Assembly: GCF_003334315.1 (NCBI RefSeq) | Contig: NZ_QOWR01000092.1 | DNA: 7,507 bases | Reading direction: 5' to 3' (one strand) | DNA from: Escherichia coli | GTDB lineage: Bacteria > Pseudomonadota > Gammaproteobacteria > Enterobacterales > Enterobacteriaceae | Part shown: positions 3,823 through 4,518 of the stretch, piece after piece | Numbering within the stretch: the first letter of the stretch is position 1 | Layout of the letters: each line of letters opens with the position of its first letter | Notes under the pieces: generated by a model | The model's input: only the letters and a program-made list of their open reading frames with translations | Databases searched by the model: none | Told to the model about the DNA's origin: nothing | Made by a program: the position numbers and the translations under genes

Positions 3823-4431
3823 TCAACTGTGAGCGGCATCAACCGATGTACGGTATGCCATAAGCACGTACTGATCCATCAGATTTGTCAGTGGTTCACT
3901 CTGACCCTGACGTGCAATGATCCATTGCTCCAGATCTTTTTCTGATTTGTGTTTCAGGTTTTTCGTCCAGTCGTCAAGGCTGTTTCCGGTCATTAAGTCA
4001 AGCCAGCAGAGCCAGACCAGTTTGAGACGTAACTCCGTGCCGCCAAACTGACGGAAGAGGCTGATCAGTTTGTTTGCCAGAGAATGTTGCTTCAGGCGCT
4101 CACATTCAGACAGCAGGATCCCTTCCAGCATCGGATGATGAACCAGCAGGTGTTCGCTGGTGCATAAATTCACCACCAGATCATCATCCAGGGACGGGGA
4201 GCTCCGTTTGTCCGGACCATAAATCAGCCGGTGCAGACTCTGGGGAACGATGGCAATCTCCGGTTTTTCGCCATTGAATGACACCCACCCGGGCGTCAGA
4301 TTATGGAAATAGTAGATATTCGGATGACACACGCCCCATGATACGGCGTGCCGGGTGAAGCCGGTCAGCCATTTCTGGTAGTTTTCATGGAGCAGCTCGT
4401 AACGGGTCTGATACTGTTGTTTCATTTTCAT
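3823..4431 (-). CDS. Hypothetical protein, about 200 aa, no recognisable family; first gene downstream of alpA
   Basis: Long uninterrupted minus-strand ORF. GAGG sits upstream of tandem ATGs (minus-strand sequence GTGAGGAATATGAAAATG); the second ATG (4425) has better spacing, while the track begins at GTG 4440. Followed by the strong hairpin at 3779..3812. Function not identifiable from sequence. Confidence 0.7.
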   Translation of the reverse strand: MKMKQQYQTRYELLHENYQKWLTGFTRHAVSWGVCHPNIYYFHNLTPGWVSFNGEKPEIAIVPQSLHRLIYGPDKRSSPSLDDDLVVNLCTSEHLLVHHPMLEGILLSECERLKQHSLANKLISLFRQFGGTELRLKLVWLCWLDLMTGNSLDDWTKNLKHKSEKDLEQWIIARQGQSEPLTNLMDQYVLMAYRTSVDAAHS

Positions 4432-4518
4432 ATTCCTCACGGGGGATAACAGGCAGCAGAGCGCCGCCGGCAGGCCGGAGATTGCGTCTGCTGTGGGCGA
4501 AGGGTTAGTGGTTAAAAA

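Follow-up and report, generated by a model that had tools for sequence, protein, structure and literature searches.

The 12-mer repeated at two divergent gene starts of an Escherichia coli chromosomal island very probably marks two ordinary ribosome-binding sites

Two genes on opposite strands of an E. coli chromosomal island begin in the same 12-nt word, TGAGGAATATGA. The evidence presented here makes it very probable that the two copies are ordinary ribosome-binding sites and that their exact identity is a local coincidence. In the window, the whole stretch of 7,507 nt that was analysed, the word occurs exactly twice, at 4428-4439 on the minus strand and at 7067-7078 on the plus strand, which confirms the first-pass annotation that an identical 12-mer stands at two gene starts on opposite strands. 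Each copy is followed by two nucleotides (NN) and then by an ATG, and the ATG contained in the 12-mer itself (4431-4429 in copy 1, 7075-7077 in copy 2) is in both cases in frame with this second ATG (4425-4423 and 7081-7083, respectively), as had also been described. The 5' end of each ORF consequently holds two in-frame ATGs, 6 nt apart. When the word is extended to a 17-mer (12-mer, NN and ATG), the two sites agree at 15/17 positions and form an inverted repeat (I4); the identity between the copies stops at the edges of the 17-mer. The features concerned are the following:

3823-4425, minus strand: gene for a 200-aa hypothetical protein, directly downstream of alpA (PGAP annotation)
4423-4425, minus strand: second ATG of the 200-aa gene, the annotated start, with a gap of 8 nt from AGGA and of 9 nt from GAGG
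4426-4518, minus strand: leader with copy 1, the 93-nt spacer from alpA to the 200-aa gene
4428-4439, minus strand: 12-mer copy 1, composed of T, the Shine-Dalgarno (SD) core GAGGA (4438-4434) and the spacer ATATGA
4519-4725, minus strand: gene for a helix-turn-helix regulator of the alpA type, preceding the 200-aa gene in the same direction (annotation)
5852-6052, minus strand: small Cys-rich hypothetical gene (annotation)
6252-6821, plus strand: gene of the inovirus Gp2 family, preceding the zinc-ribbon gene (annotation)
6822-7080, plus strand: spacer with copy 2, 259 nt from the Gp2 gene to the zinc-ribbon gene
7067-7078, plus strand: 12-mer copy 2, composed of T, the SD core GAGGA (7068-7072) and the spacer ATATGA
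7081-7083, plus strand: second ATG of the zinc-ribbon gene, the annotated start, conserved in relatives
7081-7446, plus strand: gene for a 'putative zinc ribbon protein', 121 aa, with DUF7828 and Zn_ribbon_11

The annotation was read from NZ_CP104618 (RefSeq/PGAP), where the window position equals the locus coordinate minus 9001, and the gene order there is IS66, 200-aa gene, alpA-type gene, small Cys-rich gene, Gp2, zinc ribbon and IS100. The window represents an E. coli chromosomal island: several E. coli chromosomes match its positions 3000-7507 at 100% identity, and islands of this type are found in thousands of genomes, often in multiple copies. For the annotated CDSs, homologs are present in E. 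coli genomes by the thousands, as well as on Klebsiella and Citrobacter plasmids. The 200-aa protein matched no Pfam or NCBIfam family. Just past the stop codon of its gene, at window 3778-3813, two 13-bp arms (ACCACAGGGCTGG / CCAGCCCTGTGGT) form a perfect inverted repeat around a 10-nt loop, possibly a terminator of transcription or else a repeat element. The product of the small gene at 5852-6052 (minus strand) is conserved and has 66 aa; two CxxC pairs precede its hydrophobic C-terminal stretch, and it gave a weak rubrerythrin-like match only.

Comparison of the gene order in the window (3823-7446) with that in related loci (L016 3750-6466; L017 4671-5875; L018 3730-6433) indicated that the arrangement is host-dependent. 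The E. coli islands have alpA in divergent orientation, followed by the 200-aa gene, while on the Klebsiella and Citrobacter plasmids it lies directly upstream of, and co-directional with, a pair of zinc-ribbon genes (Gp2-alpA-Zn-Zn-Gp2). Between alpA and the Gp2 gene, related islands carry a member of the hha/ymoA family that is often frameshifted (L141 1695-1870; L142 3371-3582; L143 2078-2227), and no such gene is annotated there in the island of the window. A second zinc-ribbon gene follows the first in other islands, usually overlapping its 3' end. Here the two are separated by IS100 (istB/istA; window 7446-7507, L001 16447-18841), so that the first gene has probably had its 3' end changed by the insertion; it measures 366 nt here versus 384-402 nt in other islands.

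The sequence GAGGA pairs with the 3' end of 16S rRNA (the anti-SD sequence), and a purine-rich core of at least 4 nt with this complementarity is present at both sites. It occupies positions -13..-9 relative to the second ATG, leaving a gap of 8 nt (from AGGA) or 9 nt (from GAGG), and is separated from the first ATG by just 2-3 nt. We compared this geometry with a control set of 106 other annotated E. coli gene starts. AGGA was found 6-8 nt before the start in 30 of its 41 occurrences in these genes, and not one of the 106 had AGGA at 2 nt or GAGG at 3 nt before the start. The distance from SD to start is optimal at 5-9 nt, and the spacers of efficiently translated mRNAs prefer adenosines (PMC7264876). 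In both genes the second ATG has a core about 5-9 nt upstream, and the first ATG has not. Because the second ATG has GAGGA at a normal distance, the 12-mer can be read as an SD sequence with its spacer. In each case the second ATG opens a conserved protein-coding ORF, which is the annotated CDS (200 aa and 121 aa, respectively).

RefSeq/PGAP places the start of both genes at the second ATG (4425 and 7081). Both ATGs are retained in 7/7 E. coli copies of the 200-aa gene examined, two of which, both diverged (L007/L141 and L144), are started by PGAP at the upstream ATG, so that the family is not annotated uniformly. A 37%-identical relative of this gene has a single ATG, and its N-terminus, aligned by eye, matches the second one. 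Among the relatives of the zinc-ribbon gene, L013, L014, L016 and L018 are missing the upstream ATG and have kept the downstream one. From the annotation of the two genes, the statistics of the SD gap and the relatives devoid of the upstream ATG, the second ATG is likely to be the start in both genes. We infer that the ATG inside the 12-mer is too near the SD core to serve as the main start, and that it would be a by-product of the spacer sequence. The "202-aa gene" of the first-pass annotation is correct as a length counted from the first ATG, but RefSeq/PGAP has 200 aa, counted from the second.

With a GAGGA core 8-9 nt before the ATG of a conserved ORF, an A/T-rich spacer, and a position that is the modal one in other E. 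coli genes, the two sites resemble canonical E. coli SD sites. Nothing essential sets them apart from these; what they have in addition is an in-frame ATG in the spacer, together with spacer sequences that are identical by coincidence. The two in-frame ATGs, 6 nt apart, are also reminiscent of tandem in-frame starts that give rise to alternative N-terminal isoforms. However, the upstream ATG lies here 2-3 nt from the SD core, a gap absent from the 106 genes, it has been lost in several zinc-ribbon relatives, and there is no sign of its use.

How surprising the coincidence is depends on how the question is put. An expectation of 0.02 occurrences holds for a word specified in advance, and the 12-mer considered here was chosen post hoc. 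Counting all 12-mers repeated on either strand, the window contains 11 such words (about 8 independent pairs), and Markov-simulated windows contained 4.4 on average, with a range of 0-12. The recurrence of a 12-mer is by itself at chance level, and its in-register position at two starts is for this reason the sole unusual aspect. In the 106 control starts, the per-position match probability climbs to 0.30-0.40 near -11 to -8, where the SD sequence is located. The probability of 12 identical bases at -14..-3 then comes to 3.8e-7 per gene pair, compared with 6e-8 for uniform sequence. Among 5,565 pairs of control starts we counted 7 runs of at least 8 identical bases and 1 run of at least 10; extrapolation from this run-length distribution gives 1.9e-5 per pair for a 12-nt run anywhere in -25..-1. 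Simple arithmetic from the per-pair figures leads to about 1e-5 to 7e-4 per window of about 9 genes (about 36 pairs), to about 4-190 such gene pairs in a genome of 4,500 genes, and to about 0.01-0.4 same-window cases per genome scanned. The in-register match is rare for one window and unremarkable in a genome-wide scan, and chance does not trivially suffice without this look-elsewhere argument. Since the statistics alone leave the coincidence unsettled, comparative evidence was sought.

The relatives of the zinc-ribbon gene comprised E. coli copies that are 86-95% identical and copies from Klebsiella, Citrobacter and K. aerogenes with 56-64% protein identity. Their starts read ctgaggaatatgac[tg]ATG and ttgaggagtatgattATG; ctaaggaacatatactATG, in which the upstream ATG is lost; ggtaaggagagtaccactATG in Klebsiella and Citrobacter; and caaaggaccaatactATG in K. 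aerogenes. Starts in the 200-aa family read gtgaggaatatgaaaATG, cgtaaggaatatgaaaATG and ctaaaggagagaatattATG. The only constants in all relatives of both genes are AGGA and the start ATG, and the exact 12-mer is not conserved among the relatives of either gene. Between E. coli and Klebsiella, the SD and spacer of the zinc-ribbon gene (the 16 nt before the start) are 50% identical, the leader at -80..-17 is 88% identical and the coding sequence 68%. Two E. coli variants, L012 and L013, likewise have their lowest identity of the three segments in the SD and spacer block; in the K. aerogenes copy L017, the most distant one, each segment stands at about 60-62%. Relative to Klebsiella and the two E. 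coli variants, these alignments identify the SD and spacer as the apparent fastest-evolving block of the zinc-ribbon start region. A specific shared signal is disfavoured by this pattern, because such a signal should be the most conserved block and is here the least conserved one. Across the relatives, the 12-mer does not show the conservation above its surroundings that would mark a cis-regulatory element.

The same alignments drew attention to a leader of about 65 nt at window 7001-7064 (plus strand), just upstream of the zinc-ribbon ribosome-binding site, which is the segment that is 88% identical between E. coli and the Klebsiella plasmid copy; sequence further upstream is about 49% identical, and the coding sequence, as noted, 68%. 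To judge from this profile, the leader looks like a conserved non-coding element, either a promoter/operator or a 5' UTR. It has no Rfam match, and its consensus hairpins show essentially no covariation.

We also read both starts in six islands. In five of them, position 2 of the motif at the two sites is G/G, A/A, G/A, G/A and A/G, and in the sixth the zinc-ribbon gene starts in the exact 12-mer while the 200-aa gene is represented by a distant relative whose ribosome-binding site is wholly different. These mixed pairings demonstrate that the two sites change independently, and that the motif variants at the two sites assort independently. The caveat in the first-pass annotation that the identity "could be chance" is the best reading.

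A wider scan used the pattern TGAGGAATATGANNATG, corresponding to the 17-mer, in one genome per species of bacteria and archaea, and yielded at least 120 loci. The matches listed are spread across unrelated phyla, with representatives of Clostridia, Bacteroidota, Pseudomonadota, archaea and other groups, and many of them fall within coding sequence. The second ATG opens an ORF of at least 60 codons in 13 of the 120 matches listed, compared with 21% of random ATGs at the same loci, and the few long-ORF openers among them have unrelated N-terminal sequences. A context that recurs among the matches listed from other phyla, cTTGAGGAATATGAGCATGC, encodes the peptide ..LEEYEHA.. inside coding sequence (L048, L062, L075, L089, L102, L106, L111, L119, L129 and L132); the protein motif is conserved, and the count of 17-mers away from gene starts is therefore inflated. 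The first-pass annotation had proposed a test for enrichment at the start codons of mobile-element genes; among the matches listed (at least 120 loci), the 17-mer is neither enriched at ORF starts nor tied to mobile-element genes.

Could the two starts nevertheless share more than their function? If they had a common origin, as the first-pass annotation suggested, leader and ribosome-binding site would derive from one ancestor by duplication, or one would have been matched to the other by short gene conversion. Local alignments were made under stringent and under lenient settings, both including and excluding the 17-mer. Those that include the 17-mer do outscore all shuffles, but this is due to the 17-mer itself. 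After removal of the SD block, some cross-family leader pairs still place within the top 0-1%, judged against shuffles or against GC-matched real sequence, and each time the columns that align collinearly are the same; on the Klebsiella and Citrobacter plasmids the zinc-ribbon gene comes after alpA, like the 200-aa gene in the window. The window pair itself behaves differently: without the 17-mer, 171-442 of 1000 shuffles were equally good over the proximal 40-60 nt, 37 of 400 were equally good at -80..-17, and over 100 nt the pair was only marginal with respect to shuffles. A blastn comparison of the two window leaders returned only 36 nt at 72% identity, driven by the 12-mer. Leader profiles built without the SD block (nhmmer) recovered all members of their own family, with E-values of 1e-25 to 1e-13, but even with the filters off had no match in the other family at E<=10. 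The Klebsiella gene order had also given rise to the idea that both leaders come from a single "alpA-downstream" leader; this was rejected, as blastn of the E. coli arrangement with that of Klebsiella aligned the alpA coding sequence alone and left the spacers downstream of alpA unmatched. The 12-mer is absent from distant relatives of both families and looks derived in each, and the independent assortment across the six islands speaks against a common origin as well. RecA-dependent exchange in E. coli usually needs roughly 20-30 bp of identity, and the 12 bp available here are shorter than that. The leaders are not detectably homologous past the short identical word, and the weak pairwise excess is not robust. 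From these comparisons, a common origin appears unsupported and very improbable, the small probability that remains being that of a very old relationship.

A shared signal acquired recently, in this island lineage alone, would account for relatives that have no 12-mer. One trans-acting factor might read the word, either a small RNA with a UCAUAUUCCUCA seed, for example the antisense transcript of the other site, or a GGA-recognising RNA-binding protein, and co-regulate both divergent modules. What speaks for it is that SD and spacer are identical in two neighbouring, divergently oriented gene groups and that at 15/17 positions the mRNA of either site is complementary to the antisense strand of the other. 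If the 12-mer or the 15/17 match were such a common docking site, a single post-transcriptional regulator would couple translation of the alpA-side and the Gp2/zinc-ribbon modules. However, the spacer part is not conserved in the relatives and belongs to the least conserved block with respect to Klebsiella and the E. coli variants, and the two sites do not co-vary across the six islands. A search for an RNA element likewise found neither a described family (no Rfam match at E<=1) nor an above-chance fold: the leaders fold no better than shuffles (z = -0.57 and -0.24), and for the zinc-ribbon leader the consensus fold is essentially free of covariation. A promoter/terminator scan predicted no promoter-like site near either copy from which antisense RNAs could be driven, and showed nothing else of relevance. 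We infer that no trans-acting factor reads the 12-mer; a factor of this kind is very improbable, and so are a shared docking site newly gained by this lineage and, as a part of that reading, the antisense or trans-acting small RNA or GGA-binding protein proposed to use it. Of the "shared initiation or regulatory signal" put forward initially, what stands is a real SD core, GAGGA, at two translation starts; the specific shared signal is left unsupported by the missing conservation and the independent variants. Formally, the copies are also 12-bp inverted repeats flanking a 2.6-kb segment (4428-7078), with genes that read outward from each arm, and inversion of a mobile segment of this kind would swap the promoters of the outward-facing genes. 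Short inverted repeats, a segment of a few kb and outward-facing genes recall the fimS-type (9-bp repeats) and Hin/Gin-type switches. Unlike in those systems, no recombinase is annotated in or beside the segment, where the annotation has AlpA-type HTH, Cys-rich, Gp2 and hypothetical proteins, the IS transposases lying further out; the repeat is not conserved, its arms differing in many islands. We looked for both orientations and rejected the segment as invertible: the inverted junction was covered at 80% or more in 0 of 3,811 E. coli genomes with flanking sequences. The likelihood of an invertible switch is negligible.

The reading as two ordinary ribosome-binding sites would account for the observations as follows. 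Each copy of TGAGGAATATGA would be the ribosome-binding region of its own gene, made up of a GAGGA core and an A/T-rich spacer, and the ribosome would initiate at the ATG two bases past the 12-mer. The two sites would be functionally alike only in the generic sense in which all ribosome-binding sites are. That they match at every base in this island lineage would be the outcome of independent drift of two unrelated leaders, a chance match helped by the compositional bias that ribosome-binding regions share, with the SD core common to both for functional reasons.

The two sites are very probably standard ribosome-binding sites, and their identity carries little biological weight. The comparison with control starts is nevertheless instructive in that the compositional bias of ribosome-binding regions lifts the probability of an in-register match about 6-fold or more over the uniform expectation. 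Short identical words at gene starts accordingly need comparative checks before they are read as shared signals. For the island itself, the analysis assigns to two uncharacterised genes a likely start at the second ATG, giving proteins of 200 aa and 121 aa.
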